This document shows positions 7,392 through 63,996 of a DNA stretch of 64,000 nt, piece after piece; position 1 is the first letter of the stretch, and each line of letters opens with the position of its first letter. Origin of the DNA: an uncultured bacterium (GTDB lineage: Bacteria > Hydrothermota > UBA3072); contig CAZKVT010000006.1 of assembly GCA_964556365.1 (NCBI GenBank), positions 25,114 through 89,113 on the forward strand. The letters run 5' to 3'. Position numbers and translations under genes: made by a program. The notes under the pieces are model-generated. The model searched no databases. It was not told the origin of the DNA and saw only the letters and a list, made by a program, of their open reading frames with translations.

Positions 7392-7398
7392 ACCCTTT

Positions 7399-7602
7399 TA
7401 GGATTAGTAGCAAAGAAGTAAAATGAGCAGGGATTAAGGATTAGTATTATAGCTATGAAGAACAGCAAGGATTAAGAAGAAACACTTACCGCTTTATCCC
7501 TAATCCTTGAACGACTAACTTGCCCTACTTCTAATCCTACTATTATCTCTGTGACTCTGTGTGAGAAATTTGTTTTGTTAATCTTGTGTAATCTCGTGGT
7601 TT
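7399..7602. repeat. Intergenic mosaic of short repeats with nested inverted arms (GGATTAG/CTAATCC family plus CTCTGTG family)
   Basis: taggattag 7399-7407 / ctaatccta 7531-7539; aaggattag 7436-7444 / ctaatcctt 7500-7508; ctctgtgactctgtgtgag 7547-7565. Confidence 0.6.
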
Positions 7603-7617
7603 CTATATATTTAATTC

Positions 7618-7872
7618 ATGTCCAAATTAAAAATAAAAGTAAAACCATCATCGAATAAAAACAAAATCTTAAAAATGGGAAACGGCACTTTTAAAATCTG
7701 GATAAAGAGCGCGCCCGAAAAGGGTAAAGCCAATAAAGAACTACAAAAATACTTGAAGAAAATTACAGGAATTAAGGTTAAAATAGTTTCGGGACTTACC
7801 TCGGAAAACAAAACAATCGAATTTGATATCGAAAAAAAGAAATTTATCAAAAAACTGGAAAAACAACTATAA
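7618..7872 (+). CDS. DUF167 (YggU/UPF0235) family protein
   Basis: 'IKVKPSSNK', 'APEKGKANKEL', 'IVSGLTSENKTI'. Confidence 0.85.
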   Translation: MSKLKIKVKPSSNKNKILKMGNGTFKIWIKSAPEKGKANKELQKYLKKITGIKVKIVSGLTSENKTIEFDIEKKKFIKKLEKQL

Positions 7873-7884
7873 ACTAAAAAGTTG

Positions 7885-7990
7885 AACCACAGAGAACACA
7901 GAAATTTTTAATGTTGTTTTTACCAAATCCCAACCCCCAAATCCAAAATCCCAAAATATGGACGCGGATAAACGCAGATTTCAAGGATTT
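7885..7990. repeat. Intergenic repeat mosaic containing a 34-nt element also present at 52548-52581
   Basis: ccaaatcccaacccccaaatccaaaatcccaaaa (7923-7956) vs ccaaatcccaacccctaaatccaaaatcctaaaa, 2 mismatches; flanked by ccacagagaacacaga and acgcggataaacgcagat units. Confidence 0.65.
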
Positions 7991-8117
7991 TATTTTTGTT
8001 TTTTTAACTCAAAACGCTGCACTCTAAACACAAAACCTCGCCAAAAACCTTGACAAGCTTAAAGTTTTCGTTAATTTTTAACATATAATTTAAACATAAA
8101 AAATCAGGGAAATATTT

Positions 8118-10706
8118 ATGGAAAAGTTTTATAAATTTTTAATTGTTATTCTAATAATTTCTATTGCTATACCTAACTGCCATAAAAACAGCTGGCCCAG
8201 AACACCATCTCCTCCTTCTGGTACTTCCCTCGGCACCATCAAGGATACACTACTCTTCATAGCCTCAACGACTGATCCGGACGGAGATGATATTGCTTAC
8301 CAATTTGACTGGGGAACAGAAATCGATTCAAACTGGAGTGATTTCCTTAATTCAGGAGATTCAATCACTGTAACGCACTGCTGGCAGGATACAGGGCACT
8401 ATAATCTACGCGTCAGAGCCATAGATATAAAAGAAAAAGTGTCGAGGTGGTCTGACCCACATTTGTTGACTATCGTAATCAGTATTGCTCCGAATATTCC
8501 CTCAATCTTTTCAGGACCTAACAGCGGATATGTTAATTATTTTTATACTTTTAGTGCAACAGCGACTGACCCGGATGGAGATAGTATATCTTACCAGTTC
8601 GACTGGGGAGACGGCAGTTTATCTGACTGGACTTCTTATGTCCCAAGTGGGGATTCAGTTCGAATGGATCATTCCTGGTCATCCGAAGGGACATATGAAG
8701 TGAAAGTGAAAGCAAAGGATAAGTATGGATTAGAATCGGGCTGGTCCCCCGAACACTCAATAACCATATCGATCGCACCAAATTTACCTCCAGAGGTACC
8801 AGATACTCCTTCAGGACCATCGAATGGTTACGTAGCAAGCATTTATATGTTCACAACAGCAACAACTGACCCGAATGAGGATAGCATATCTTACCAGTTC
8901 GACTGGGGGAACAGTTTTAGTTCGGGATGGAGTAGTTATGTATCAAACGGACAATCTGTTTCCATAGGCCATGCTTATTCATCCCCGGGTATATATTCCG
9001 TTACTGCAAAGGCAAAAGATGTAGATGGTGCGGAATCAGATTGGTCGGACGGGTATCAAATCACAATATCGAACATCCCCAATAATCCTCCCAACATACC
9101 CGTGATACCCTCCGGACCATCAAATGGATATGAAGACAGTACCTATAATTTTTCTGCTGTTACCACTGATCCGGATGGAGACAGTATATCCTATCAGTTC
9201 GACTGGGGGGATACTAATTTATCTGCATGGAGTAATTATGTATCAAGTGGGCAATCTGTTTCTTTGAATCATTCCTATTTGTCCGCAGGAATATATTCTC
9301 TCAAAGCAAGGGCAAAAGATAAGGATGATGCGGAATCAGATTGGTCGGACGGACATCAAATCACAATATCGATTAACAACAACCCTCCCAATATACCAGC
9401 GGAACCAACTGGACCCTCAATGGGACATGAAGACAGCACATACACTTTCTTCACCTCTACGACTGACCCGGATGGAGATAGCATATCTTACCAGTTCGAC
9501 TGGGGGGATGATAGTTTATCACCGTGGAGCCCTTACATACCAAGTGGTGATTCGGTTCAAATGAATTATTCCTGGTCTTCAGAAGGAAGATACGAAGTAA
9601 GAGTAAAGGCAAAGGATAAGTATGAGATAGAACCGGGTTGGTCAACCGAACACTCTATAACAATCATAAGGATGAAATGGGCTTTCGCAACCGGAGACCA
9701 GGTGCAATCTTCCCCGGCTATAGGCTCAGATGGAACAATCTATGTAGGATCTAAAGACAACAATTTATATGCAACATACCCAAATGGAATAGAAAAATGG
9801 AGTTTTGCAACCGGAGGTGATGTGGTCTCCTCTCCTGCAATAGGCAGCGATGGCACCATTTACGTGGGCTCCGATGACAAAAACCTCTATGCAATAAACC
9901 CGGATGGAACCCAGAAATGGGCTTTTTTAACCGACGATGAAGTGTGGTCTTCTCCTGCTATAGGCTACGATGGAACCATCTATGTAGGTTCAACAGATGG
10001 CAATCTCTACGCTATAAACCCGGACGGAACCCAGAAATGGGCTTTTTTAACCGACGGCTCTTTGAGCCACTCCTCTCCCGCAATAGGTTCAGATAGCACC
10101 ATCTATGTGGGTTCCCAGGATAACAATCTCTACGCTATAAACCCGGACGGAACCCAGAAATGGGCTTTTTTAACTAACGGTAGTGTTATTTCGTCCCCTG
10201 CTATCGGAAATGACAGCACTATCTATGTGGGATCCTGGGATCATAATCTCTATGCAATAAATTTGGACGGAACCGAGAGATGGACGTTTCCAACAGGAAA
10301 TCGCATAAACTCCTCTCCTGCTATAGGCTACGATGGAACAATCTACGTAGGTTGCTGGGATCACGGGTTATACGCGATAAACCCGGATGGAACCGAGAAA
10401 TGGATATTCTCTGCCGGAAGTTCTGTACTTTCGTCCCCTGCCATCGGAAATGACGGCACCATCTATGTGGGTTCCTATGATTATAATCTTCACGCGATAA
10501 ATCCAGATGGAACACAAAAGAAGATATTCCTAACAAATGGTGTTATAATATCAGCTCCCACTATAGAAAATGATGGGACTATATATGTGGGATCCTGGGA
10601 TAATTATATATATGCCTTTTTGGGTTCTTCAGGAAGTCTCGCCAATACTCCCTGGCCAATGTTCCATCACGATTTAAAACACACAGGAAGAGCAGGAGAA
10701 CCCTGA
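8118..10706 (+). CDS. Surface lipoprotein with five PKD/Ig-like repeats and an 8-bladed PQQ-like (BamB-type) beta-propeller
   Basis: Hydrophobic signal ending IAIPNC; five 'TDP(D/N)(G/E)DxIxYQFDWG' modules; eight 40-aa 'S(S/A)PxIxxDxTIYVG' repeats. Confidence 0.8.
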   Translation: MEKFYKFLIVILIISIAIPNCHKNSWPRTPSPPSGTSLGTIKDTLLFIASTTDPDGDDIAYQFDWGTEIDSNWSDFLNSGDSITVTHCWQDTGHYNLRVRAIDIKEKVSRWSDPHLLTIVISIAPNIPSIFSGPNSGYVNYFYTFSATATDPDGDSISYQFDWGDGSLSDWTSYVPSGDSVRMDHSWSSEGTYEVKVKAKDKYGLESGWSPEHSITISIAPNLPPEVPDTPSGPSNGYVASIYMFTTATTDPNEDSISYQFDWGNSFSSGWSSYVSNGQSVSIGHAYSSPGIYSVTAKAKDVDGAESDWSDGYQITISNIPNNPPNIPVIPSGPSNGYEDSTYNFSAVTTDPDGDSISYQFDWGDTNLSAWSNYVSSGQSVSLNHSYLSAGIYSLKARAKDKDDAESDWSDGHQITISINNNPPNIPAEPTGPSMGHEDSTYTFFTSTTDPDGDSISYQFDWGDDSLSPWSPYIPSGDSVQMNYSWSSEGRYEVRVKAKDKYEIEPGWSTEHSITIIRMKWAFATGDQVQSSPAIGSDGTIYVGSKDNNLYATYPNGIEKWSFATGGDVVSSPAIGSDGTIYVGSDDKNLYAINPDGTQKWAFLTDDEVWSSPAIGYDGTIYVGSTDGNLYAINPDGTQKWAFLTDGSLSHSSPAIGSDSTIYVGSQDNNLYAINPDGTQKWAFLTNGSVISSPAIGNDSTIYVGSWDHNLYAINLDGTERWTFPTGNRINSSPAIGYDGTIYVGCWDHGLYAINPDGTEKWIFSAGSSVLSSPAIGNDGTIYVGSYDYNLHAINPDGTQKKIFLTNGVIISAPTIENDGTIYVGSWDNYIYAFLGSSGSLANTPWPMFHHDLKHTGRAGEP

Positions 10707-34788: not shown

Positions 34789-36654
34789 ATGAAAAATTCG
34801 ACAAAAATAATATTCTTTTCGTTAGTTTTATTAACTCTATTTAATTGTTCCGAAAATAGTTCACCTGAAACATCTTCCGCTCCCTCTGGACCATCTACAG
34901 CCGAAGCCCATAGCTATCTATCTTATACATTTTCAACGACAGATCCTGACGGTGACGACATATCTTATCAATTCGACTGGGGAGACGGGAATCTATCAGA
35001 ATGGACTGATTTCATGGAAGCCGGACAAACTATTTCACAGAATTACGTATGGCGTGAAACAGGAACCTTTAGTATAAAGGTAAGAGCTATGGATACAAAA
35101 GAGAAGATATCCGACTGGTCAGAGGCTCTTGCTATAAACATTGTCACATGTACTAATTTCCCTCCAAATACCCCCTCTGCACCTTCAGGAATCGATAGTG
35201 GATTTGCGCACACTACCTATACTTTTTATACGGGTACAACTGACCCTGAAGGAGACAGTATATCTTATCAATTCGACTGGGGTGACGGAAATTTATCATA
35301 TTGGACTGATTTCATGGAATCCGGCGATACAGTATCCGTAAATCACGCATGGCAAGATACAGGGAATTACAATATAAATGTCAGAGCTATTGATACAAGA
35401 AATAAAATAAGCATTTGGTCAGAAGCTCATCCGATAAATATATATACTAACTTACCACCAAACCAGCCGCTTGCACCTTCAGGTGTGGACAGTGGATTTG
35501 GAGACACTACATATACATTTTATGCGAGCACAACCGATCCTGAAGGAGACAGTATATCGTATCAATTCGACTGGGGGGATGGCAATCTAACTTATTGGAC
35601 CGATTTTCATCCTGCAGGAGATATTGTATCAATGGAACATTTTTGGAGTTACAATGGAATATATTCCATTAAAGTTCACGCAAAAGATATAAATAATTTA
35701 GAATCAGATTGGTCCGCTGAACATCAAATACATATTCTCTCTAATGGGACACCACCCCCAGAAGATTCTTTTCCGGATAAAGTAATCACAGTTATCGACG
35801 TTGGAGACGGTCCTATGGGATTCGATTTTCTCCCAAACGGAGAATATGCATATATAACCAATTGCAATAGCAATGATATATACCTTATAAAAACTTCAGA
35901 TCACACAGTTGCCGATATATTTCCACTGGGTTCCGAACCGAACTATGCGGCAGCACTTCCAAACGGCGAGTATGTATATGTTACGGACCATCACGATTCC
36001 TGCGCTTATGTAATGCGGACCTCGGATAATGAAGTAATCGACACGATAAAATTAGGAGGCGGTCCTCATACCATCGTCTCACTTCCAAACGGAGAATATT
36101 TGTATGCGACAAATAGCTGGACCAACGAAGTAAGTGTTATAAGAACTTCCGACAACACAGTTGTCGCTACCATACCGGTTGGAGAAGATCCAAGAGGTAT
36201 AGAAGCACTCCCAAACGGAGAATATGTTTACGTCGCATGTATGGGTCCCAGTCGTGTTTACGTAATAAGGACATCCGATAATACGGTAGTTGATAATATA
36301 CAAGTAAATCACTGGCCTCACACGATTACAACACACCCTGACGGAGATTATGTTTATGCTACCTGGGATTTTGGTAGCGAGATTTATGTTATAGAAACCA
36401 GCACGAATACACTGGTTAAAAACATTACTGTGGGAAATACACCTAAAGGAATAGCCGTATTGCCAACCGGAGACTATATATACGTATCGAATCGAGCAAG
36501 CAGCAGTATATCCGTAATCAGGGAATCTGATAACACAATTGTAAAAACCATACCAGTACAATATGCACCTCTTTACATGAAATCCGCACCAAATGGAGAA
36601 TTTCTTTATGTAACACACGGGCGAAGTGATATAGTTACTGTAATAGGATATTAA
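34789..36654 (+). CDS. Surface lipoprotein with three PKD/Ig-like repeats and a YVTN-type beta-propeller
   Basis: Signal ending LFNC; three 'TDP(D/E)GDxISYQFDWGD' modules; seven or so 'PNGEYxYV...S' blades. Confidence 0.8.
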   Translation: MKNSTKIIFFSLVLLTLFNCSENSSPETSSAPSGPSTAEAHSYLSYTFSTTDPDGDDISYQFDWGDGNLSEWTDFMEAGQTISQNYVWRETGTFSIKVRAMDTKEKISDWSEALAINIVTCTNFPPNTPSAPSGIDSGFAHTTYTFYTGTTDPEGDSISYQFDWGDGNLSYWTDFMESGDTVSVNHAWQDTGNYNINVRAIDTRNKISIWSEAHPINIYTNLPPNQPLAPSGVDSGFGDTTYTFYASTTDPEGDSISYQFDWGDGNLTYWTDFHPAGDIVSMEHFWSYNGIYSIKVHAKDINNLESDWSAEHQIHILSNGTPPPEDSFPDKVITVIDVGDGPMGFDFLPNGEYAYITNCNSNDIYLIKTSDHTVADIFPLGSEPNYAAALPNGEYVYVTDHHDSCAYVMRTSDNEVIDTIKLGGGPHTIVSLPNGEYLYATNSWTNEVSVIRTSDNTVVATIPVGEDPRGIEALPNGEYVYVACMGPSRVYVIRTSDNTVVDNIQVNHWPHTITTHPDGDYVYATWDFGSEIYVIETSTNTLVKNITVGNTPKGIAVLPTGDYIYVSNRASSSISVIRESDNTIVKTIPVQYAPLYMKSAPNGEFLYVTHGRSDIVTVIGY

Positions 36655-41357: not shown

Positions 41358-42131
41358 CTACCTCCTGATAAGTAAATAATTAATTGGGTTAACCCATTTC
41401 CCTTGCATTTGTACACCATAATGCAGATGAGGAGCATCACTCCTTCCGCTGTTACCTGATAAAGCGATTAATTGATTCTTTTCTACCAGTTGTCCATTCT
41501 CAACCAGGATTTTTTCTAAATGACTATAGAGTGTTACGAAACCCTCATCATTATGAATTTCTAATGTTTTTCCAAGATATTCTCTTTCTCCAATAAAAGC
41601 AACTGTACCATCCATTGTGGAATAAATGGAAGTTCCTTCTTTTAGAGAAATATCTATTGCCTTATGATCCGCCGAAAACCTCTTGCTTATCCAACCTTCC
41701 GCTGTGGGTAATATATTGGGAACAAAATCCTGCAGCCACTCTGCTTCATCTTTCAAACTTATATTTTCACTTATTTTATAAGGTTCTACAGAAGGTTTTT
41801 CTTCTTCGGTTTTATAGAATTCTTCTAGCGAAATTTCTAAACCGAGCGCCCCATTTAATTTGCCGGCAATATCGTAAAACTTTTTCATAGTACTATTTAA
41901 GTTCTCTATTTCTAATGCCCTACTCTCAAGATTAACTACTCTATTCTTCAATAAATTATATTCCGCTTTATTAACAACCATCTTACTGATATTAAAAGAG
42001 AAATATAAAATGGCACATATTATCAGAAGAACTATAACACTTACACTCACTATTATTTTCTTAGTTAAATGGATTTCTTTTACTTCCCCGTTTTCCGGAA
42101 TAATTTGTATTGTATACTTTTTAATGCCCAT
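41358..42131 (-). CDS. M23 family metallopeptidase with N-terminal TM and coiled coil
   Basis: HxxxD 'HKAID', 'LYSHL', 'GNSGRS', HxH 'PHLHY'. Confidence 0.9.
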   Translation of the reverse strand: MGIKKYTIQIIPENGEVKEIHLTKKIIVSVSVIVLLIICAILYFSFNISKMVVNKAEYNLLKNRVVNLESRALEIENLNSTMKKFYDIAGKLNGALGLEISLEEFYKTEEEKPSVEPYKISENISLKDEAEWLQDFVPNILPTAEGWISKRFSADHKAIDISLKEGTSIYSTMDGTVAFIGEREYLGKTLEIHNDEGFVTLYSHLEKILVENGQLVEKNQLIALSGNSGRSDAPHLHYGVQMQGKWVNPINYLLIRR

Positions 42132-42148: not shown

Positions 42149-42958
42149 TTATCTTGTCCTTTTTATTAAATTATGAATTCTCTCCAAATCTTCATCTGAA
42201 TAGAATTCTATTATTAGTTGATTTTTTTTCTTCCCTGTTTTTATTTTTACTTCAGTATTGAAAAAATGCATTAGTTCCTCTCGTAGATCCTTATACTTTG
42301 CGGGTGTCTCTAACTTTTTCTTTTTTCTTCCTGAAGCTTTCTCAGCCTCTCTAACGGTTTTTTTGCCTTTTATTATATTATCGAATTCTTTTAAAATCTT
42401 ATCTTTATCTTTAAAACCCAAAAGTGCTCTCGCATGCCCTTCAGTTATCTCATTCTCCATTAAGGCTTTTTTAACTCTCTCGGGAAGAGAAAGTAATCTC
42501 ATTTTATTTGTTATTGTGGTCCTGGCCTTACCTACCCTCTCGGCTATTTCTTCCTGTGTAAGATTAAATTCCGCGTTCAAATTATAATAAGCTTCCGCTT
42601 CCTCCATAGGACTCAAATCTTCTCTCTGTACATTCTCGATTATGGCAATTTCGAGAACTTCTCTGTCTGAAAGCTTTCTGAAAATAGCGGGAATTTCTTT
42701 TAAACCGGCTTTTTTAGCTGCTTCAAAACGACGGTGTCCATAAACCAATTCGCTTTTACCATTCTGAAGTCTCCTGAGTAAAACAGGCTGCAGGACCCCA
42801 TTCTGTTTTATCGAATCGACAAGTTCTTTTAAATCATCCGCATTAATTCTTTTTCTGGGTTGCAGGGGTGAATGAACTATTTCCCCAATCGGTATCTTAT
42901 CTTCTTCCACATTGGGGATTAGAGCATCAAACCCCTTGCCAAGTGCCCGTCTTACCAT
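42149..42958 (-). CDS. parB: Chromosome partitioning protein ParB
   Basis: 'ALGKGFDALI', 'GVLQPV', 'YGHRR', 'IIENVQREDL', HTH 'TQEEIA...RTTITN'. Confidence 0.93.
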   Translation of the reverse strand: MVRRALGKGFDALIPNVEEDKIPIGEIVHSPLQPRKRINADDLKELVDSIKQNGVLQPVLLRRLQNGKSELVYGHRRFEAAKKAGLKEIPAIFRKLSDREVLEIAIIENVQREDLSPMEEAEAYYNLNAEFNLTQEEIAERVGKARTTITNKMRLLSLPERVKKALMENEITEGHARALLGFKDKDKILKEFDNIIKGKKTVREAEKASGRKKKKLETPAKYKDLREELMHFFNTEVKIKTGKKKNQLIIEFYSDEDLERIHNLIKRTR

Positions 42959-43715: not shown

Positions 43716-46166
43716 TCAGAGGACTTCGGCAACAGAACGGGAGGAGAAAAAAATTAAATTATTGTCTTCTCTGGAAACAACAATTTTGTTTCCCTTTTCC
43801 CATTTCCCTTTTAAGAAACCTTCTGCTAAATTATCCTCTAAATGCCTCTGAATTAATCTTTTTAGTGGACGGGCTCCGTATTCGGGATCAAAGCCTTTCT
43901 CTATAAGAAAATCCTTTGCTTCTCCGGTAAGAGAAATCTCAAACCCTTTTTCCTCGACTCGCTCCCTTACATCCCGGAAAAATATATCCACTATCGAAGA
44001 CATTACCTCTATATCGAGAGATTTGAAAACAACACTCTCATCAATACGATTTAAAAATTCAGGACTAAATCTTTCTTTGATTTCCTCGAGAAGATATGAT
44101 TTCATCTCCTCGTATTTAACACCCTTACCAGGTTTTTTAAAACCAACATGAGAACCACGCATTATTTCTCTTGTTCCTATATTAGACGTCATAATAATAA
44201 CGGTATTTTGAAAAGAAACTTTTCTTCCGTATGCGTCAGTAAGAATCCCTTCATCAAAAACCTGAAGAAGAATATTATAAACATCAGGATGAGATTTTTC
44301 TATCTCATCTAAAAGAATAACAGAATAAGGTCTCCTTCTGACAGTTTCAGTTAATACCCCACCTTCATCATATCCAACATATCCGGGAGGAGCACCTATC
44401 AGTTTAGAGACGTTAAATCTCTCCATATATTCACTCATATCTATTCTAACCAGAGCATCTTCTGTGTTAAAAAGGAATTTAGCAAGCTGTTTCGCCAACT
44501 CTGTCTTACCAACTCCCGAGGGGCCAAGAAACAGAAAAGCTCCTAAAGGTCTTTTCATATCACGAAGACCAGCCCTGCTTCTCCGGATCGCACGAGAGAC
44601 CACTTTAATCGCTTCATCCTGTCCCACCAGTCTCCTTCTAATTTCATCTTCCATTGAAAGAAGCCGCTCTGTCTCTTCTTCTTTAAGCCTTTTAAGAGGA
44701 ACTCCCGTCCAAAGGGAAATAACTTCTCTTATATCATCTTCAGAAACGGCCACTTGCTTAAGACCCTCGTATTTTCCCCAATCTTCCAAGCTTTTCTCGA
44801 GTTTACCTTCGATTTCATCCCTTCTGTCACGCAGTTCAATTGCAATTTCATACTTTCCTTCTTCCCTTACTTTTATTAATTCCTCTTTTACCTCTCGCAA
44901 TTCTCCCTCGAGATTTACAATTTCATCGGGAACTTTAGTTTCCCTTAACCTGACTTTGGCTCCTGTTTCATCCAGGACATCGATTGCCTTATCAGGAAGA
45001 TTTCTATCTGCTATATATTGACAGGAAAGTTTTACAGCTACTTTAATTACTTCATCGGTATAAGTAACCTTATGAAAATCCTCATATTTACGTTTAATAC
45101 CGTTTAAAATGTCTATTGTTTCATTTACTGTAGGAGGATCTATAAGAATCATTTGCAATCTTCTTTCAAGAGCGCCATCTTTCTCTATATATTTCCTGTA
45201 TTCTTCAGTAGTAGTAGCTCCAATTGTTTGAATTTCACCCCTGGCAAGAATTGGTTTTAGCATATTAGAAGCATCGATCGCTCCTTCGGCAGCTCCGGCA
45301 CCTACAATTGTATGCATTTCATCGATAAAAAGAATATTATCGGAATCTTTCAATGATTCTAAGATCTGTTTTAACCTTTTTTCAAACTGTCCGCGGTATT
45401 TTGTTCCCGCTATAATAGAAGCGAGATCCATAGAAAGAATCCTCTTCCCCTGAAGCATCTTAGGAATTGAACCTGCAACAATCCTCTGAGCTAAACCCTC
45501 TACTATTGCGGTCTTACCAACACCTGGTTCACCAACAAGCACAGGATTATTCTTTTTTCTTCGACACAAAGTTTGGATTATCCTTTCCATCTCGTTTTCC
45601 CTACCTATTATGGGATCGATTTTCCCTTTCTTCGCGAGTTCGGTAAGGTCCCTCGTATAATAATCAAGCGTTCTGTCGACAGATTTTTTCGGTTTATCTG
45701 TACTTTGCTCACTTACTTTTTCTTTATTGAAAATCTCGAGAAGCATCTGTTTTGCTAAATAATAATCAATTTCCTCGGGTTTTAATATTTCAACGAAAGT
45801 TACTTCATTAGATTTCAGTAAAGATAAAAGTAGATGTTCCGTACCTATTATTTGTCTGCCAAGGACTAAGGCTTCTTCTTTTGCCTGCTCAATGATATTA
45901 ATTGAATCCCCCGATAAACCTATCGGTTCTTTTATAATTGAAACTCCACTAATACCCCTTACAAGCCTTAGAATACGATTCTCGAGCGCCTCAATATCGA
46001 CTCCAGCTTCTTCAATTATGGTAACCGCGATATTGTTTCCGTGTTTTAGTATCGCGAGTAAAAGAATAACCGGAGTAACTTCACTCAAACCAACTTCAAT
46101 GCTCAGATCTTTTGATATTTTCACAACATCTATAAGCTTTTTCGTAAATCTTTCATCCATAAACAT
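43716..46166 (-). CDS. clpC: ATP-dependent Clp protease ATP-binding subunit ClpC
   Basis: Clp N domain, two AAA+ modules (GEPGVGKT/IDEMH; GPSGVGKT/LDEIE), UVR middle domain, ClpP-docking VGF loop. Confidence 0.95.
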   Translation of the reverse strand: MFMDERFTKKLIDVVKISKDLSIEVGLSEVTPVILLLAILKHGNNIAVTIIEEAGVDIEALENRILRLVRGISGVSIIKEPIGLSGDSINIIEQAKEEALVLGRQIIGTEHLLLSLLKSNEVTFVEILKPEEIDYYLAKQMLLEIFNKEKVSEQSTDKPKKSVDRTLDYYTRDLTELAKKGKIDPIIGRENEMERIIQTLCRRKKNNPVLVGEPGVGKTAIVEGLAQRIVAGSIPKMLQGKRILSMDLASIIAGTKYRGQFEKRLKQILESLKDSDNILFIDEMHTIVGAGAAEGAIDASNMLKPILARGEIQTIGATTTEEYRKYIEKDGALERRLQMILIDPPTVNETIDILNGIKRKYEDFHKVTYTDEVIKVAVKLSCQYIADRNLPDKAIDVLDETGAKVRLRETKVPDEIVNLEGELREVKEELIKVREEGKYEIAIELRDRRDEIEGKLEKSLEDWGKYEGLKQVAVSEDDIREVISLWTGVPLKRLKEEETERLLSMEDEIRRRLVGQDEAIKVVSRAIRRSRAGLRDMKRPLGAFLFLGPSGVGKTELAKQLAKFLFNTEDALVRIDMSEYMERFNVSKLIGAPPGYVGYDEGGVLTETVRRRPYSVILLDEIEKSHPDVYNILLQVFDEGILTDAYGRKVSFQNTVIIMTSNIGTREIMRGSHVGFKKPGKGVKYEEMKSYLLEEIKERFSPEFLNRIDESVVFKSLDIEVMSSIVDIFFRDVRERVEEKGFEISLTGEAKDFLIEKGFDPEYGARPLKRLIQRHLEDNLAEGFLKGKWEKGNKIVVSREDNNLIFFSSRSVAEVL

Positions 46167-46170
46167 AGGA

Positions 46171-47211
46171 TTATCCTCCTAAATAATTCCTTATTATCTT
46201 TGCTCTGAGAATATTTTCCTCTTTTTCATTACTAACATCTTCATTATTAATCCTTATGTGTCCGGGAAGCACCTGGAAAAGCCATTTATTCAAATCCATT
46301 ATATTTACATCCTTGATAATACCCAAACTTGAACCAAGTCTCAGGGCTGATGTCAAGTTAAGAAAGTCTGTAACGGACAGAATCCTTGCGTTTTTTAAAA
46401 TCCCGTAGGATCTCCAAATTTTATCTTCCGTTTCATAACCAACTTTTTGAGTCAAGTATTCCCTGCTGTTAATTTCATCCTTAATTATGCTTTTAATTTT
46501 ATTTTTAAATAATTTTAATATTTCTTCTTCGGAAACACCAAGGGTAAACTTGCTGCTTATTTTAAAATAACTACCCTCAACACTCTCCCCCATATTAAAA
46601 ACACCTTCGATCGAAAAAAGTGACTCCTCGAGATCATCGATGATATCGACAAATTTACCGGTAATAACAAGAGCGGGGAGATGCGCTACAGCAGAAACAA
46701 TCATACCTGTTCCGACTTTATCTGTCGACGAAGTCAAAAAACCCAATTCATTATCATAAGCAAAACCAAATTCTTCATTCAATTCATCATCCAGTCCATC
46801 ACATTGAACAAACGCTTCTTTAGCAGACAATTCTGAACATATAGAAGAAATTTCAAGGTGTTCATCAGAGTTCAAAACAAGCATATTGCTCTGAGAATCG
46901 TTTAAAGCCAAACCAATAAACTCACAATTTTCATATTCTTTTCTTGATATAAAATGTCTTTCTACGAAAAATCGTTTGTCTCTATCTTCTAAATCTTTTA
47001 AAGTAATATAATTATCAAAATGAGGAAGCGTGGAAACACCTTCAAACAGTAAATTCAAAATTTGTGCTTTCTCTTTTTCGGTGTTTTTTTTATTAAACTT
47101 ATAACCTCCAAGATTACGATATAAAGAAACCTTGGAAAACAAAACCATTTCAGAATAAGGACCGGCTTCTTCCAACCATACAGGAAAATGTTCCACAAGT
47201 GAATTAATCAT
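46171..47211 (-). CDS. mcsB: McsB (protein arginine kinase) homolog with degenerate active site
   Basis: Position between mcsA and clpC; conserved 'GP.S..VL', 'HLPALV', 'TLG.SEEEI', 'EDKIWRSYGILKNAR', but catalytic NEED and CP-T-N motifs are substituted. Confidence 0.88.
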   Translation of the reverse strand: MINSLVEHFPVWLEEAGPYSEMVLFSKVSLYRNLGGYKFNKKNTEKEKAQILNLLFEGVSTLPHFDNYITLKDLEDRDKRFFVERHFISRKEYENCEFIGLALNDSQSNMLVLNSDEHLEISSICSELSAKEAFVQCDGLDDELNEEFGFAYDNELGFLTSSTDKVGTGMIVSAVAHLPALVITGKFVDIIDDLEESLFSIEGVFNMGESVEGSYFKISSKFTLGVSEEEILKLFKNKIKSIIKDEINSREYLTQKVGYETEDKIWRSYGILKNARILSVTDFLNLTSALRLGSSLGIIKDVNIMDLNKWLFQVLPGHIRINNEDVSNEKEENILRAKIIRNYLGG

Positions 47212-47671
47212 TTTTGCTCCTTATGGTTTTCAACTCTTTTTTCCTTTCCTCAATCCTATCTCTCAATTCAACAGCCTCTTCAAACTTTTCTTCTTCAACA
47301 AAATTTTCCAACTTTTGTTTCAATTCTAAAATCTCTTTTTTTACAGAAAGGACCTTGGTATTCGTAACCGGCTCTTTACCCTTATGTACAAGATCCAACT
47401 GTGAATCTTTTAGATAAATCTGAATCTGATCATAAAAAGTCTTATAACAATTAACACAACCTAATTGCTTAGAATTCTTGTACTCACTAAATGTCAAACC
47501 GCAGGTGGGACAAACTTTGTTCTTGCTTATACTCGAATCATCTTTATTTTTAACATCTACGCCCTTTTTCCTGGCACATTCTTCACAGATATTTATCTCC
47601 CGGACATTATCTGAGTATACTTCATAATATTTATATTTAGCACCATCAGCACCGCATAAATCACATTTCAT
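47204..47671 (-). CDS. mcsA: McsA (CxxC zinc-binding protein with UvrB/C motif)
   Basis: CDLC, CEEC, CPTC, GCVNC; 'HKGKEP'; 'EEKFEEAVELRDRI'. Confidence 0.92.
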   Translation of the reverse strand: MKCDLCGADGAKYKYYEVYSDNVREINICEECARKKGVDVKNKDDSSISKNKVCPTCGLTFSEYKNSKQLGCVNCYKTFYDQIQIYLKDSQLDLVHKGKEPVTNTKVLSVKKEILELKQKLENFVEEEKFEEAVELRDRIEERKKELKTIRSKND

Positions 47672-48347
47672 TTTTTTCTAATTTACCCTCAACTAAATTA
47701 TATGTTTTTTTTCCCATTTGTGCAACCCTTCGATTATGACTAACTAGTATAATCGTCATTCCACTTGTCCGATGAATCTCTTCTAACATCCGCAGAACCG
47801 CCTCCGCGTGAGCCCAATCCAAATCGCCTGTAGGTTCATCCGCCAGCAACAAGACAGGATTATTTATAATCGCTCGCAAGACTGCAACTCGTTGCCGTTC
47901 TCCTCCTGAAAGAGTTCTGGGTTTAGCATGCATTCTGCCGCTAAGATCTACTCGATGCAGCAATTTCTCCGCTTCCTTACAGGCTCTGTTAAAAGCAGTT
48001 CCCTTGATTAAAAGCGGTATAGCCAAATTTTCAACTACTGTAAAATCAAGCAAAAGATGATGAAACTGAAAGATAAATCCTATTCTCTCATTTCTAATTT
48101 GCGCGAGCGCTCTATCTTTATAGCCATACAAAGAGTTTCCATCAAGAATGACATCTCCTCCATCCGGATGCAAAAGACCACCGATAATGTTTAAGAGAGT
48201 GCTTTTGCCCGAACCGGAAGGACCGCTAATTGTTATAAAATCACCTTTTCCAACTTCTAAATCAACGCCGTCGAGCACCTTTATCTCTTCCTTACCTGAA
48301 ATAAAACCCTTACTTACATCTTTAAGTGTAATTATATTATCACTCAT
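47661..48347 (-). CDS. lolD: Lipoprotein-releasing ABC transporter ATP-binding protein LolD
   Basis: 'GPSGSGKS', 'GFIFQFHHLL', 'LSGGERQR', 'ADEPTG'. Confidence 0.88.
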   Translation of the reverse strand: MSDNIITLKDVSKGFISGKEEIKVLDGVDLEVGKGDFITISGPSGSGKSTLLNIIGGLLHPDGGDVILDGNSLYGYKDRALAQIRNERIGFIFQFHHLLLDFTVVENLAIPLLIKGTAFNRACKEAEKLLHRVDLSGRMHAKPRTLSGGERQRVAVLRAIINNPVLLLADEPTGDLDWAHAEAVLRMLEEIHRTSGMTIILVSHNRRVAQMGKKTYNLVEGKLEKNEM

Positions 48348-49566
48348 TTCTTATAGCCTCCACAGGATCGAGACTGGAAGCTTTCTTCGCGGGATACAAA
48401 GCCGCCAGTAAAGATAATATTATAGCTGAAAAAGCCACCAGGAGGAAATCAAATAATTGCATTTCTACCGGTAATTTTGTAAGAAAATAAACATCCGAAG
48501 GCAAATCTATAAATTGATACTTTCCAAGAAGAAAGCATAATATCCAGGCTAAACCGACGCCAAAAAGAGTACCCCCACCTCCGACAATAAGTCCATCTAA
48601 AATAAAGACTTTCGTAATAGAAGAAGCAGAAGATCCCAGAGCTTTAATAATACCTATTTCTCTCATTCTTCCCAAAACAATCAATACCAATGAAGAAATA
48701 ATATTAAAGGCGGCAACGATAATTATTAAAGTTAATATGATAAACATCACTTTTTTCTCTATCTCTAAAGCTCTAAGAAGCGTTCTATTCCTCTCCATCC
48801 AGTTAACAACCCTATACGGATACCCGAGTTCCGCCACAATATCGATTGCAAGTCCGGGAGCTTTATACGGATTATTTACAGTAAAATCTATTCCCGTAAC
48901 ACCATTAACACCAAAAAGCTTCCTCGCGTTTTCTACAGACATTATGGCAAGTGTCGCATTGTATTCATACATTCCCATATCAAAAAGTCCGGAGACAATA
49001 TAATCATCAGCCGAAAGCAAAAAACCAAACGGCGTCGGAGCGGAAGAAAAAGGAGCGGAAACAGTTATTGTGTCTCCGACATGAGCCCACAACCGATTAG
49101 CAAGAAATTTCCCGAGAACAATCCTTCTTTCCGAAAGATCAAATTCACCTATAACAATGTTTTCGGGAATATCAGAGACCAACGAGAAAGAAGCGGGATC
49201 CACACCTCTTATTATTGCTCCATCGGTCTTTTTATCAAATCTCAAGAGTGCCTTCTCATAAATATATGGTGCAGCATTCTTAATTTCAGGCACACTCTCC
49301 TTTACATTAGATGCAATCTCTTCCCAATCTGAAATCGCAATTTGGTCTACCCTCGAAAGTGTAAGAGGCGCACTGGCACCAAGAACCTTACTCTTTAAAT
49401 CAGTCTGCATTCCGTTCATTACGGAAAGAACCACTAAAAGAGTAGCGACCCCCAAACAAATTCCACCAGCCGCGAACAGGGTAATTAAAGATCTAAAACC
49501 TTCGCCCTTTTTAATTCTTATATATCTTTTAGCAAGAAAGAATTCGAAATTCGAGAATTTTTTCAT
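48340..49566 (-). CDS. lolE: Lipoprotein-releasing ABC transporter permease LolC/E
   Basis: 'VLSVMNG', MacB-like periplasmic domain, 'VAAFNI', 'REIGIIKALG', 'VYFLTKLP', 'LYPAKKAS.LDP'. Confidence 0.88.
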   Translation of the reverse strand: MKKFSNFEFFLAKRYIRIKKGEGFRSLITLFAAGGICLGVATLLVVLSVMNGMQTDLKSKVLGASAPLTLSRVDQIAISDWEEIASNVKESVPEIKNAAPYIYEKALLRFDKKTDGAIIRGVDPASFSLVSDIPENIVIGEFDLSERRIVLGKFLANRLWAHVGDTITVSAPFSSAPTPFGFLLSADDYIVSGLFDMGMYEYNATLAIMSVENARKLFGVNGVTGIDFTVNNPYKAPGLAIDIVAELGYPYRVVNWMERNRTLLRALEIEKKVMFIILTLIIIVAAFNIISSLVLIVLGRMREIGIIKALGSSASSITKVFILDGLIVGGGGTLFGVGLAWILCFLLGKYQFIDLPSDVYFLTKLPVEMQLFDFLLVAFSAIILSLLAALYPAKKASSLDPVEAIRNE

Positions 49567-49572
49567 GTAACC

Positions 49573-49600
49573 AGTATATTCCTTTTAACTCTTTGGGCAA
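49573..49600 (-). promoter_or_regulatory. Promoter TTGCCC-16-TATACT; predicted TSS at the lolE ATG
   Basis: Six nt between the -10 box and the A of ATG 49566; no SD. Confidence 0.5.
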
Positions 49601-49650: not shown

Positions 49651-49679
49651 AAAAAGCTCCCGGGGAATCTCGGGAGCTT
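49651..49679 (-). terminator. Rho-independent terminator
   Basis: 9-bp stem aagctcccg/cgggagctt, 8-nt loop, followed by a U-run on the minus strand, about 20 nt after the stop at 49699. Confidence 0.75.
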
Positions 49680-49698: not shown

Positions 49699-51009
49699 TT
49701 ACTTCCCTAAGACATAAATGTAACCGTGAGACTCGACGACATAGGCTCGGGAGCCATCAGGATTGAAGACAAGTTCAGTGAACGAACCAGCGTCCGGGAA
49801 CTCGAGTTTCTCGACCATGGTCGGATTTGTTGGGTCGTTGACATCGTAGACACTAATATAATCAGAACCATCATCGCAGAGGAAAAGATAGTTCTCATCC
49901 GGGGTAAAAGCCATACCAAATTCTCCGATATCAGGATCAAATTGGGTAACTTTCGTAAAGCTTGAGAGATCAACAACATAGACATCGTCATTAAGATGCG
50001 AAATAAAGGCATATTCATCATCAGGGGTAATCAGAATAATCTCGGGTCCGTTGCCGACCGAAAGTTGTCGGTTGACAGTCATCGTCGTTGGATCGAGTTC
50101 ATAGAAGATGTCATCGCTCTGGTTGACCGCATAGAGTTTTGTCTCGGCGTGGTTCAGGTCGACATCCATTATCCAGGGCAAAAGAACGCTGTCGATCATT
50201 GCCCCGCTTGAGACATCGAACTTCGTGATACAGCCGTCCCCGGCCGTCGCCATATGCGTTGCATAGATGATGTCGTTCGCTTGGGTCAATGCCACCCCGT
50301 AGCCTTCCGGGCCAACCTTAACCGGTGGAGAGCCTTCTAGAAAACCGAGCATCCTGGTCTGGGTATAACTCGATGTAGAAATTTCGAGGATACCGGCACT
50401 GTCCATATTCCAGACACCACAGTAGTAGGCAAAACTACCATCACTGGTAATTCTCAACTCATTATCACCGACATTGGTAACCGGAATCGGGTGGGTCACC
50501 TGATTGGTCGCAGTCGATATCACATAGACAAGGGTATCGTACTGCCCCCAGTGGTTAACCCAGATCTCAGCGCCATTCGGGGTAATGTCAATTGACTGAG
50601 GATCTTCTAAGACCTGAATCCTTGTTAACAGATTCCTTGGATAGGCAGCGCCTGAGACCACAAAGGAATCGAGATCCGAGAAATCATTCATCCTACCATT
50701 CCCATCAAGCGCAAAGACCTGCCAATAGTATTTGAGCGTATTAAGACTCGAGATGGTATATGTGGTATCAGAAACCTCAACAGAAACCACTGGTGATGCA
50801 AAATTAGCAGTGGTATCAACTTCCACAGCATAACCAGAGGCATTCTCAACTTTTGTCCAGAAGAGTGATACAGGCAATAAAACCTGTTCGCCACCGGTCG
50901 GCTCAAGAAGATTAAGCCCACTAATAATTTCACCGCCACAGGAAGTAAAAAGTAGCACCGCACCAAGAATTGCTGTACAAAGTACCACGATTCTATGTTT
51001 AGCAATCAT
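49699..51009 (-). CDS. Lipoprotein with an N-terminal Ig/FN3-like domain and a YVTN-type beta-propeller; GC-rich
   Basis: Lipobox LFTSC; blades 'SIDITPNG.EIWV', 'ILITPDDEYAFIS', 'FNPDGSRAYV'; promoter TTGACA-17-TATAAT at 51082-51110. Confidence 0.75.
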   Translation of the reverse strand: MIAKHRIVVLCTAILGAVLLFTSCGGEIISGLNLLEPTGGEQVLLPVSLFWTKVENASGYAVEVDTTANFASPVVSVEVSDTTYTISSLNTLKYYWQVFALDGNGRMNDFSDLDSFVVSGAAYPRNLLTRIQVLEDPQSIDITPNGAEIWVNHWGQYDTLVYVISTATNQVTHPIPVTNVGDNELRITSDGSFAYYCGVWNMDSAGILEISTSSYTQTRMLGFLEGSPPVKVGPEGYGVALTQANDIIYATHMATAGDGCITKFDVSSGAMIDSVLLPWIMDVDLNHAETKLYAVNQSDDIFYELDPTTMTVNRQLSVGNGPEIILITPDDEYAFISHLNDDVYVVDLSSFTKVTQFDPDIGEFGMAFTPDENYLFLCDDGSDYISVYDVNDPTNPTMVEKLEFPDAGSFTELVFNPDGSRAYVVESHGYIYVLGK

Positions 51010-52710: not shown

Positions 52711-53043
52711 ATGTCTATTCGCAATTCAAAATGGTCTAAAAGAGAAAAAAAGATAGCTCGTAAAGCATTTGACAAAGCTTATCAAAGAGAAATGGAAATA
52801 ATAAAAAAGGAAATATTAAATCGTTTAAATAAAATGAAGTCTGTTGATCAAATATGGGATTTACATGATTTTTTAAGTGCTAAAAGAAACAATATGGCTG
52901 ATAAATACGATTATAGATATTCTATGTTAATAACTGTTTTTGGCAGGTTATTAGCTGAAGGATATATATCAGAAGAAGATTTATGTGGACTTGATGATGA
53001 GAAACTAACTTCAATCAAAAATATATCAAGATTCAAGAAATAA
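52711..53043 (+). CDS. Fluorescence recovery protein (FRP)-like protein
   Basis: 'WSKREK.IARKAFDKAYQRE', 'QIWDLHDFLSAKR', 'KYDYRYS.LI.VF..LL.EG', matching cyanobacterial FRP; promoter TTGACA-16-TAAACT at 52649-52676. Confidence 0.8.
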   Translation: MSIRNSKWSKREKKIARKAFDKAYQREMEIIKKEILNRLNKMKSVDQIWDLHDFLSAKRNNMADKYDYRYSMLITVFGRLLAEGYISEEDLCGLDDEKLTSIKNISRFKK

Positions 53044-61408: not shown

Positions 61409-62041
61409 ATGGCGGAAGCCGATCAATTTAACGAATTAGAAAAAACAGAAAATATAGAAGAAGAAGAAAAAGAAGAAAATAAAAAAAACAAAATACAGGG
61501 TGAATTTGAAGGTATGGAAGTAATAATCGACAACTTAGAAGAAGAAAAAGAAGAACTCAAGGATAAATATCTTCGAGCTTTAGCTAACTACGAAAACCTT
61601 AGAAAACGAGCTATTCAAGAAAAAGAAAAAATTTATAATTTTACCCTTGAAGAAGTATTTAGGAAAATTCTTCCTATTCTCGACGATTTCGAGAGGGCGT
61701 TTAAATCCCTCGAAGAAAGCAAAGAACACAAAGATGATTATAAATCTTTCAGCGATGGGATTCGTCTGGTTTACTCCAATCTAAACAACTTACTAAAAAG
61801 TTATAATATTGAATCGTTTGAATCCATAGGAGAGAAATTCGACCCCGCAAAACATGACGCAATCCACGTAATTGAAAAAGAGGATGAAGAAAATGATATT
61901 ATATTAAAAGAGACGGAAATTGGATATAAAATCAAAGATAAAATTCTTCGTCCCGCAAAAGTTATAGTAGTGAAAAATAGCGAAGAGAACCGTAATAAAA
62001 ATCAAAATAATAGTAACAATCAAGGAGGAGAAGCAGAATGA
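61409..62041 (+). CDS. grpE: Nucleotide exchange factor GrpE
   Basis: '[14 protein letters not shown]', '[10 protein letters not shown]', 'FDPAKHDAI', '[13 protein letters not shown]'. Confidence 0.95.
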
Positions 62042-63996
62042 AAGAACCAGTAATCGGTATCGATCTCGGAACAACTAACTCGGTTGTCGCGATTGTCGAA
62101 CAATCAGAACCGGAAGTAATTACAAATTCTGAAGGACAAAGAACCACTCCTTCGGTAGTAGGATTCAAAGAAGGAGAGGAGTTAGTTGGATTACAAGCAA
62201 AAAGGCAACAGCTTACCAATCCTCAGAATACAATCTTTTCAGTAAAAAGATTTATGGGCAGAAGGTACGAGGAAATAGAAAATGAAAAGAAAAAAGTTCC
62301 TTTTGACGTAATAAAAGGTCCTCATGACGACGCGAGAATAAAGGTGGAAGATAAAGTCTATTCTCCACCGGAAGTTTCCGCGAAAGTTCTTCAATACCTA
62401 AAGAAAGCTGCTGAAGAACACGTAGGTAGGGAAGTTAAAAGAGCCGTCATAACTGTCCCGGCGTATTTTAACGATGCCCAGAGGAAAGCCACAAAAGATG
62501 CGGGCGAAATAGCAGGGTTGGAAGTCTTAAGGATAATAAATGAACCCACGGCGGCTTCTCTTGCCTACGGTTTATCAGAGAAAAAAGAAGAAAAAATAGC
62601 CGTTTTTGACCTTGGCGGAGGAACTTTCGATGTATCCATTCTTGAAATAAGTGAAGGGGTATTCGAAGTTCTGTCAACAAACGGAGATACACACCTTGGC
62701 GGAGATGACTTTGACCATACAATAATGGAATGGTTAATAGAAGAATTCAAAAATGAAACGGGAATAGATATTTCTGACGACAGAAGCGCTGTCCAGAGAG
62801 TAAGAGACGCGGCGGAAAAAGCAAAAACCGAACTTTCCACAATGAAAGAAACTACAATAAATTTGCCTTATCTGGCGGGAGACAAAACAGGGGCAAAACA
62901 CCTTGAAAAGAAACTAACAAGGGCTAAACTTGAATCTTTATGCGAAGAACTCCTTAAGAGAATAGAAGGACCAGTTAAAAACGCTCTTAAAGACGCGAAT
63001 TTAACTACAGATGAAATCGATGAAGTTCTTCTCGTAGGTGGTATGACAAGAATGCCTTCTGTTCAAGAAAAAGTTAAAGAACTTTTCAATAAAGAACCCA
63101 ATAAAGGGATTAACCCCGACGAAGTTGTGGCTGTTGGCGCGGCTATCCAGGGAGGAGTACTGGCAGGAGATGTAAAAGATGTTCTACTTCTCGATGTAAC
63201 CCCTCTGTCCCTCGGAATAGAAACCCTCGGCGGAATGATGACAACAATAATACCCAGAAATACCACTATACCCGCCGAAAAAAGCAAGGTCTTTACAACC
63301 GCTGAAGATAACCAACCCGCGGTTTCAATTCATGTTCTTCAGGGAGAAAGACCTACGGCGGCTGATAACAGAACACTGGGAAGATTCGAGTTAACAGGTA
63401 TACCTACCGCACCAAGAGGTGTTCCGCAAATAGAAGTCAGTTTCGATATAGACGCAAATGGCATACTTAATGTTTCGGCAAAAGACCTTGGAACAAAGAA
63501 AGAACAATCAATCAAAATCGAATCTTCTTCCGGTCTAACCGAAGATGAAATCGAGAAAATGAGAACCGAGGCAGAAACATACGCGGAAGAAGATAAAAAG
63601 AAGCAGGAATTAATAAACGCAAGAAACTTTGCCGATACGCTTATCTATAATACAACAAAAACACTAAAAGAGCACGGCGATCTCGTTTCAAGTGAAGAAC
63701 GCGGCGCTATTGAAAACGCGATATCCGATCTTAAAGAAGCTCTCGAAACAGAAGATCCTGTTAATATAAGAAATAAATCGGAAAGTCTTCAGACAGCTTC
63801 TTATTCAATCTCAGAGAAATTATACGAACAGAAAAAGAAAGAAGAGGCTCAAAAGGAGGGCGCGACTGCTTCCGGAACCTCAGAGCAAAAACCGCAGGAA
63901 GAAAAGAAAGAAGAAGAAAAAGGAGCAGAAGAAGTCGAGGCAGATTTTGAGGTAATCGATGAGGAAGAGGATAAAAATGAAGAGGAGAAAGAATAA
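62038..63996 (+). CDS. dnaK: Molecular chaperone DnaK
   Basis: 'GIDLGTTNS', '[10 protein letters not shown]', 'DLGGGTFD', 'GDTHLGG', 'GINPDE', '[10 protein letters not shown]'. Confidence 0.98.

Follow-up and report, generated by a model that had tools for sequence, protein, structure and literature searches.

The window described here is a 64,000-nucleotide stretch of DNA (positions 25,114 to 89,113 of contig CAZKVT010000006.1, assembly GCA_964556365.1) from an uncultured bacterium of the Hydrothermota (UBA3072). Between 41.3 and 49.6 kb its minus strand carries eight closely packed genes, running from a lolC/E-like permease to an M23-type peptidase-like gene, and among them is a full-length mcsB ortholog whose product is without the catalytic, ATP-phosphate-binding and phosphoarginine (pArg) receptor residues of its family. 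McsB is, to our knowledge, the only known protein arginine kinase, and its pArg mark is the equivalent, in bacteria, of a degradation tag. The gene, hereafter pseudo-mcsB, is a pseudokinase ortholog of McsB which has been fixed and selected in the WOR-3/TA06/'Stahlbacteria' lineage. The cluster and the signals at its 5' end are as follows.

49654..49679, both strands: G+C-rich hairpin, terminator-like in either direction (11-pair stem, 7 GC pairs), between a beta-propeller gene (49699..51009) and the operon
49573..49600, minus strand: sigma-70-like promoter match, TTGCCC-16-TATACT, just 5' of the lolC start (a match to consensus only)
48340..49566, minus strand: lolC/E-like permease, first gene of the cluster (MacB_PCD and FtsX domains), syntenic wherever the length of the locus suffices
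47661..48347, minus strand: lolD-like ABC ATPase, overlapping lolC by 8 nt and mcsA by 11 nt
47204..47671, minus strand: mcsA, 155 amino acids (aa), with two zinc modules, a Z2-L3 'H.GK' segment and a UVR-like coiled coil
46171..47211, minus strand: pseudo-mcsB, 346 aa
43716..46166, minus strand: clpC, 816 aa, with Clp_N, two AAA+ modules, a short M-domain and an HVGF ClpP-docking loop
42927..43709, minus strand: parA, 6 nt 3' of clpC, in the conserved cluster
42149..42958, minus strand: parB, overlapping parA, in the conserved cluster
41358..42131, minus strand: M23-type peptidase-like gene, final member of the conserved cluster (labelled from an HxH motif only)

The ATG of pseudo-mcsB sits within ATGATTAA, where it overlaps the mcsA stop codon, and has AAGGAG upstream; the clpC ATG lies 4 nt past the pseudo-mcsB stop codon and is preceded by AGGAGGA. 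Judged by genes that overlap or abut and by their ribosome-binding sites, mcsA, pseudo-mcsB and clpC are predicted to be co-transcribed and translationally coupled. An intact frame of 346 aa, coupled to its neighbours, had been reported in a first-pass annotation of the window, and both points stand.

The product of pseudo-mcsB matches Pfam PF00217 (E 4.5e-36), and its closest solved relatives are the McsB proteins of G. stearothermophilus and B. subtilis (6fh1, E 1.5e-50); for P0001, a protein 99% identical to it, a PF27454 (McsB_C) match is precomputed. Substitutions were read from HMMER and MAFFT alignments and are numbered as in B. subtilis McsB, a numbering validated by C167, E121, R194, R337 and D338 landing on the expected letters. 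The regions concerned are listed below; counts out of 46 refer to the clade introduced further on.

47113..47136, minus strand: SKVSLYRN replacing SRIRLARN (R29K, R31S; R34 and N35 kept)
46846..46872, minus strand: NSDEHLEIS replacing NEEDHIRIQ (E120S, E121D, D122E, R125E)
46699..46731, minus strand: SSTDKVGTGMI replacing SCPTNVGTGLR (C167S, N170K, R176I)
46588..46611, minus strand: IEGVFNMG replacing VRGxYGEG (R207E, G211N, E212M)
46189..46221, minus strand: EENILRAKIIR, at what was the pArg receptor site (Glu replaces R337 in 46/46, Asn replaces D338 in 44/46; R341 kept)
46471..47211, minus strand: phosphotransferase-like domain, residues 1-247 (median omega 0.117)
46174..46470, minus strand: dimerisation domain, residues 248-346, the most constrained part (median omega 0.065), with many clade-specific invariant residues; its surface conserved specifically in the clade includes E251, Y252, E260, T261, F283, L284, N285, E332 and N333

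Eight core positions (29, 31, 121, 125, 167, 176, 207 and 212) are invariant in 77/77 canonical sequences, and all eight are replaced in pseudo-McsB, which is therefore not a matter of chance. R207 is counted as the fifth of the arginines that bind the ATP phosphates. Four of the five (R31, R125, R176 and R207) are replaced non-conservatively, while R29 has become mostly Lys (36/46). C167 and the NEEDH motif (E121) are catalytic elements of McsB (PMC11046695), and R29, R31, R125 and R176 are the equivalents of the cluster R124, R126, R229 and R280 which binds the nucleotide phosphates in arginine kinases (PMC12467219). The four motif replacements, with their Cys and Arg losses, had been quoted in the first-pass annotation and are present in both alignments; no catalytic Glu/Cys/Arg set occurs at shifted positions in them, and close relatives share the losses. 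The change at R337/D338 is an addition to that earlier account. These two residues form an allosteric pArg receptor site in the dimerisation domain, and a R337A/D338A mutant is broken in pArg-dependent oligomerisation (PMC8370763). R337 is not universal in canonical McsB, being present in 96 of the 129 sequences that have all eight core residues (127 representatives and two reference McsBs); its loss, as read from the alignments, strengthens the case that pseudo-McsB has left pArg chemistry.

When 5.8 billion proteins were searched by word index, 45 relatives of pseudo-McsB came up at 99% to 45% identity, after which identity falls abruptly to 35% or less; with the window these form a clade of 46. 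The degenerate motifs are common to all 45 relatives, and from P0046 onward every match is canonical (SSRIRLARN, NEEDH[IL]R, CPTNVGTGxR and RGxYGEG). The source names of the members are candidate division WOR-3, TA06 and 'Candidatus Stahlbacteria'. Because the catalytic losses are found throughout 46 proteins that diverge down to 45% identity, they are not specific to a strain. In a tree built by neighbour joining (NJ) only, 40/40 bootstrap replicates recover the clade as monophyletic, and it subtends the third-longest internal branch; the best tree places the canonical WOR-3 pair P0046/P0047 as its sister, with weak support (13/40). Three more distant proteins at 32-35% identity (P0140, P0143 and P0186) group with the clade. 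The first two are encoded in a lolC-lolD-mcsA-mcsB-clpC operon of the same kind, and the third lies on a short contig on which its gene is followed by clpC; the ClpC proteins beside them are similarly disrupted in repeat 1 of the N-domain (ITSE, ISVE and ITPE). From this grouping and the similar ClpC repeat, the lineage goes back further and is wider than the clade delimited at 45% identity. The genes of the clade are annotated as 'protein arginine kinase' by JGI and mostly as hypothetical protein by NCBI, and the automated kinase names are wrong for them.

Within the clade position 167 is Ser in 44 and Thr in 2 of the 46 proteins, position 121 varies among D, E, K, Q, N and R, and position 170 is K or R in all. 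Positions 121, 125, 176, 207 and 212, invariant in canonical sequences, vary more within the clade than most columns do (82nd-93rd percentile), which is how abandoned catalytic positions would be expected to look. Sixty-one positions are conserved to at least 95% in canonical McsB; the clade keeps 32 of these and loses 29, and the lost ones cluster in the catalytic and ATP motifs together with R337. Against the McsB equivalog model NCBIfam NF002194/NF053707 pseudo-McsB scores 266.5 bits, below the cut-off of 385. Failure at this cut-off alone is weak evidence, since two of three canonical controls, P0046 (374 bits) and L131 (373 bits), also fall just short of it (L118 reaches 410 bits); the informative signal is the deficit of 100-140 bits on NF002194 that pseudo-McsB shows relative to its canonical relatives.

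The protein is folded in prediction and selected in fact. Its AlphaFold2 model (pLDDT 93.1, pTM 0.90) superimposes on apo McsB 6fh1 in Foldseek with a TM of 0.90 over 344 columns, and all 19 genomic copies of the gene (18 species-level genomes and the window) are intact at 346-347 codons. The ratio of nonsynonymous to synonymous substitution rates (dN/dS, or omega; pairwise NG86, unsaturated pairs) is 0.046-0.119 for the whole gene, with medians of 0.117 for the phosphotransferase-like and 0.065 for the dimerisation domain, as compared with 0.12-0.21 for mcsA, 0.07-0.19 for lolD and 0.03-0.07 for clpC. The gene is under strong purifying selection. Across 46 proteins down to 45% identity, then, the substitutions are clade-wide and selectively maintained, and the earlier view that this is no decaying pseudogene is borne out by the 19 intact copies at omega 0.05-0.12. 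The dimerisation motif EDKIWRSYGIL, also singled out early as conserved, occupies residues 262-272 and is identical in the canonical WOR-3 McsB P0046. Homology to and fold of an active family, loss of the catalytic motifs and purifying selection across the clade, the properties by which a pseudokinase is recognized, are thus found together, and pseudo-McsB is best described as a folded, selected McsB predicted to be devoid of McsB chemistry.

The gene order lolC-lolD-mcsA-mcsB-clpC-parA-parB-M23, with the degenerate gene in the mcsB place, is identical in every locus whose length covers the whole cluster (14 of the 18); the remaining four, on short contigs, have the same order as far as they extend. 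With a fully canonical McsB, lolC-lolD-mcsA-mcsB-clpC is found in a WOR-3 metagenome-assembled genome (MAG; L118), in Gemmatimonadota (L131-L135) and in Chitinivibrionales/Fibrobacterota (L137, L129). Since a canonical McsB holds this slot in related phyla, pseudo-mcsB occupies the ancestral mcsB slot, and by its position it is the ortholog of the protein arginine kinase McsB, turned pseudokinase. The first-pass annotation had remarked that lolD rather than ctsR lies upstream. A lolD-like ABC ATPase gene does lie there; the absence of ctsR is normal, however, as lolCD is upstream in the canonical loci of WOR-3, Gemmatimonadota and Fibrobacterota too, and it says nothing about the pseudokinase. 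More widely, lolC-lolD stands directly 5' of mcsA-mcsB(-clpC) with a canonical McsB in WOR-3, Gemmatimonadota, Fibrobacterota/Chitinivibrionales, Edwardsbacteria and other MAGs (L118, L122, L123, L126, L128, L129, L131-L135, L137, L139 and L047, with mcsA at about 5.5 kb in most). In these diderm phyla the position that ctsR has in Firmicutes is filled by lolCD; the counterpart in the window is 47661..49566.

Other WOR-3/'Stahlbacteria' MAGs (L099, L119, L120) carry a canonical mcsA-mcsB-mutS arrangement away from clpC. A coexistence scan with probes from motifs shared by both McsB types gave 42 loci from 42 assemblies, 18 of them degenerate and the 24 others mostly fully canonical. No assembly among the 42 has both types, as far as motif-dependent probes and incomplete MAGs can tell, and a McsA-based probe found the canonical mcsA-mcsB pair only in three other assemblies; replacement rather than coexistence is favoured because the two types do not occur in one assembly. 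No second mcsB is present in the 64-kb window or its flanks. Neither ctsR nor ywlE was found in the window and 18 flanks of about 10 kb by tblastn and a scan for the motif of low-molecular-weight protein tyrosine phosphatases (queries: B. subtilis CtsR from L076 and a YwlE sequence), which is too little sequence to establish absence.

The ClpC encoded directly downstream has two Walker A motifs (GEPGVGKT and GPSGVGKT), and three sites of its N-domain compare with the canonical one as follows.

46065..46079, minus strand: repeat 1, 'VTPVI' versus canonical 'IGTEH' (29-33), with G30T, T31P, E32V and H33I; pArg pocket 2, disrupted
45834..45845, minus strand: repeat 2, 'GTEH' (E106 equivalent); pArg pocket 1, retained
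45903..45920, minus strand: 'GLSGDS..I' versus canonical 'YTPRAK'; Ile/Leu in 19/19 at K85, which is the main anchor of the resting state

ClpC proteins from 19 loci beside pseudo-mcsB were compared with 17 from beside canonical mcsB. R9 is K in 19/19 of the former and R in 17/17 of the latter; G30 is T or I (19/19) versus G (17/17); T31 is P (19/19) versus T (16/17); E32 is V or I in 14/19, the five deepest having E, versus E in 17/17; H33 is lost in 19/19 and is H in 17/17; K85 is L or I (19/19) versus K or R (16/17); and E435 is K or R in 15/15, the canonical-linked proteins having E, D or N. T7 and T105-E106-H107 (pocket 1) are kept in 19/19, as they are beside canonical mcsB. In S. aureus ClpC, E32 defines pArg pocket 2 and E106 pocket 1, the latter more relevant for activation (PMC12583610). 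The same study describes K85-D356/E359, R9-E435 and T7-E426 as the anchors of the repressed resting state of ClpC, and K85A, R9A and E435A as derepressed and adaptor-independent (PMC12583610). The ClpC of this lineage has thus probably lost pocket 2 and two of the three resting-state anchors while keeping pocket 1.

The window's copy of McsA has CxxC motifs at residues 3, 29, 54 and 72 and a UVR match (E 2.7e-6), in agreement with the four CxxC motifs and UVR domain first ascribed to it, and is without the long Z1-Z2 linker of Firmicutes McsA. McsA throughout the clade keeps the eight zinc-ligand Cys, G98, Y103, H124 of the L3 loop, K127 and the UVR-like coiled coil. On its side pseudo-McsB keeps F41, D146, T165 and E233, which are McsA contacts of McsB (PMC11046695). 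Because the contact residues and these McsA features are kept, binding of McsA is likely to be retained.

The loss of catalytic residues is not confined to this clade. An exhaustive search of 1.84 billion representatives at 50% identity, in which the clade collapses to a single entry (P0040), gave 150 nearest representatives, of which 127 have all eight core residues, 23 are without at least one and 16 without at least three; degenerate McsBs are hence not rare in environmental lineages. In a NJ tree built without the catalytic columns there are about ten all-degenerate clades, from which degenerate McsBs would have arisen about ten times among the nearest relatives, most of these origins being independent. 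R337 loss goes with catalytic loss (12/17 versus 33/129; Fisher p = 4e-4). The other degenerate proteins include P0217, P0254/P0214/P0162, P0281, P0221, P0216, P0205/P0238, P0171, P0151 and P0139, and those at loci L126/L128, L124/L125 and L140; the neighbours of their genes are in some cases mcsA and clpC and in others DUF58 or DHQ synthase genes. Those nearest in kind to pseudo-McsB (P0140/P0143/P0186; P0217; P0254/P0214/P0162; P0205/P0238; L126/L128 and others) share with it the family, the fold and multiple core losses, have frequently lost R337 and often have mcsA upstream; they differ in that the ClpC N-domain at L147 and L149 is canonical and that some are not beside clpC. Degeneration of the ClpC N-domain was considered as a general companion of McsB degeneration and was rejected on account of L147 and L149. 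At L147 (5020-7444) ClpC is called as two open reading frames (ORFs; 651 and 159 aa), which may reflect a frameshift, an error in sequencing or true decay.

We think it probable that pseudo-McsB and McsA together serve ClpC as an adaptor or regulator that does not depend on phosphorylation. The support for this is indirect and comes from the operon linkage, the retained McsA-contact residues, the lineage-specific changes in the ClpC N-domain and the precedent of the engineered B. subtilis mutant C167S. The latter is kinase-dead, yet binds the ClpC N-domain and stimulates its ATPase to about 50% of the wild-type level (bioRxiv 10.1101/2022.09.15.508104); it also co-localises with aggregates and supports disaggregation, with refolding better than that obtained with the active kinase (bioRxiv 10.1101/2022.09.15.508104). 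In the mechanism proposed, pseudo-McsB would still bind McsA through the retained lambda1-3 surface and dimerise through its strongly conserved C-terminal domain. In this adaptor or regulator role, independent of phosphorylation, the McsA/pseudo-McsB pair would dock on the ClpC N-domain, recognise misfolded or aggregated clients and switch ClpC(P) on, as C167S does at reduced efficiency. Because the N-domain has lost R9, K85, E435 and pArg pocket 2, gating of ClpC has probably moved from pArg-triggered release to direct protein-protein control by McsA/pseudo-McsB. The phosphorylation-independent part of this proposal is one that we infer from sequence and do not consider proven. A more far-reaching version, offered tentatively as a possibility that we would not call probable, is that the pArg logic of the WOR-3 lineage has been wholly dismantled in favour of direct protein-protein gating, with the McsB active site and receptor and the ClpC pocket 2, R9-E435 and K85 anchors all lost; McsA/pseudo-McsB would then be a constitutive or redox-controlled ClpC switch and client selector, and the roughly ten origins would represent a recurrent and so far unrecognised class of AAA+ regulators.

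Several points weigh against the adaptor proposal. The adaptor role of McsB has been reported to need kinase activity (review PMC5506225). ClpC pocket 1 is kept in 19/19, for which reason pArg recognition may persist. As the clade is monophyletic, the association between the altered ClpC and pseudo-McsB amounts to a single evolutionary event, and independent degenerate McsBs P0254 and P0205 have beside them (L147 and L149, respectively) a ClpC whose N-domain is essentially canonical, so that the remodelling is lineage-specific. L118 (WFRC01000349.1, ClpC at about 7028-9442), the single exception among the canonical-linked ClpCs, has T31P and K85Q despite a fully canonical McsB; it may be an intermediate toward the remodelled N-domain. 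The ClpC changes are consistent with co-adaptation, as one event outside statistics and with no general rule. Pseudoenzymes are, moreover, sometimes active via migrated residues, and the basic residues K27 and K/R165 are conserved in the old pocket. Finally, there may be a second active kinase elsewhere in the incomplete MAGs, which were probed by motif only, and the evidence for absence of ywlE and ctsR extends to the window and flanks of about 10 kb.

Such a second kinase is central to the explanation that pseudo-McsB is a non-catalytic regulatory subunit, heterodimerising with an active McsB or competing with it for McsA and ClpC, so that pArg signalling persists. The intact pocket 1 (19/19), the canonical mcsA-mcsB pairs beside mutS and off clpC in L099, L119 and L120, the EDKIWRSYGIL motif shared with P0046, and the two independent degenerate lineages that stand beside a fully canonical ClpC N-domain would all suit it. 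We nevertheless hold it to be rather improbable: the 42 loci yielded no assembly with both types, the McsA-based probe located the canonical pair only in three other assemblies, the window and flanks have no second mcsB, and the gene sits in the ancestral slot, not a new one. A partner regulated by pArg should also keep its own pArg receptor, which pseudo-McsB has lost. Alternatively the remodelled site could sense a ligand, binding a nucleotide, an arginine-like metabolite or a peptide without turnover and so setting the activity of McsA/pseudo-McsB/ClpC. Here the conservation of replaced pocket positions (S31 91%, E122 98%, S167 96%, K/R170 100%), the retention of R34, N35, H123, the VGTG loop and H182 and the purifying selection on the phosphotransferase-like domain (omega 0.117) have to be set against the variability of five of the eight core positions, among the highest in the clade, which argues against a precise new site there, and against the net loss of four Arg, two of them now acidic, which makes triphosphate binding unlikely. 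On balance we regard a ligand sensor as unlikely.

A residual protein arginine kinase or other phosphotransferase, working through non-canonical residues, seems to us very improbable indeed. R29 is Lys in 36/46, N170 is K/R in 46/46, the window's E121D and D122E are still acidic, and PMC10211241 offers a general precedent in 'pseudoenzymes' with migrated catalytic residues; but the hallmarks R31, R125, R176, R207, E212 and C167 are all gone together, position 121 wanders from D and E to K, Q, N and R, and no compensating conserved Arg or Glu is found among the clade-specific conserved positions. Even the change C167S alone inactivates B. subtilis McsB (bioRxiv 10.1101/2022.09.15.508104). A decaying pseudogene or an artefact of annotation or assembly, to which the NCBIfam score far below cut-off (266.5 versus 385 bits) might point, is excluded by the 19 intact copies of 346-347 codons with omega near 0.1, conservation to 45% identity and, in the wider group with the same operon, to 32-35%, the confident fold prediction and the translational coupling of the gene to its neighbours.

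Comparison with characterised systems places pseudo-McsB as follows. With the McsB kinases of B. subtilis, G. stearothermophilus and S. aureus (6FH1, 6TV6, 8GQD) it shares the two-domain fold, the length, mcsA upstream and clpC downstream, the dimerisation motif and several McsA-contact residues; it differs from them in being without R29, R31, E121, R125, C167, R176, R207, E212 and R337/D338, and in having lolCD upstream, as do canonical loci of these phyla, where the kinase loci have ctsR. The C167S mutant likewise has Ser at 167 and is without kinase chemistry, as is predicted for pseudo-McsB, and it behaves in the way proposed for the latter; the mutant, however, differs from the wild type at one position and is still able to bind ATP, with its pArg receptor in place, whereas in pseudo-McsB the entire site is gone together with the receptor and the ClpC partner is altered. 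Adaptors of the MecA/YpbH type resemble the proposed mode in being non-enzymatic, binding the ClpC N-domain, releasing the resting state and delivering clients, but have no sequence or fold relationship to pseudo-McsB.

Whether the adaptor role of McsB is separable from its kinase activity has so far been argued from point mutants. The clade constitutes a natural experiment on this question, kinase chemistry and pArg receptor being gone while the McsA/McsB/ClpC linkage is selected, and it offers a concrete, expressible set of proteins for the study of kinase-independent ClpC activation. If the more far-reaching version of the proposal is true, it would represent a natural separation of the adaptor and kinase functions of McsB. 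The ClpC N-domain, altered and without the reported conserved resting-state regulators, is a comparator for ClpC repression that is built differently, and those resting-state residues are the targets of anti-mycobacterial cyclic peptides. No description of a natural McsB pseudokinase was found in full-text literature searches, and in a 2025 review of bacterial pseudokinases McsB appears only in the reference list. What is new is a known family, in a known operon, that has lost its defining activity, whose ClpC partner is altered and which is one of several unrecognised degenerate lineages.

A few other features of the window deserve mention. The lipoprotein-like beta-propeller gene 5' of the operon (49699..51009, minus strand) is 89-93% identical to its counterparts at L010 (1-549) and L011 (5959-7266); LolC in L010 and L011 is only 80-82% identical to that of the window, so that the neighbouring beta-propeller gene is unusually conserved. 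The grpE-dnaK genes are at 61409..63996 (plus strand), 14 kb from the operon, and no match to the HrcA operator CIRCE with three or fewer mismatches was found across the whole window. Large secreted-type proteins with PKD, BNR/Sortilin-like and beta-propeller (PQQ/lactonase-like) domains, typical of surface or degradative functions and with no link to pseudo-mcsB, are encoded at 5001..7391, 8118..10706 and 34789..36654. Lastly, a 110-aa ORF at 52711..53043 (plus strand) matches Pfam PF18032 (FRP; E 8e-28), the fluorescence recovery protein of cyanobacterial orange-carotenoid-protein photoprotection, which is unexpected for a WOR-3 genome.

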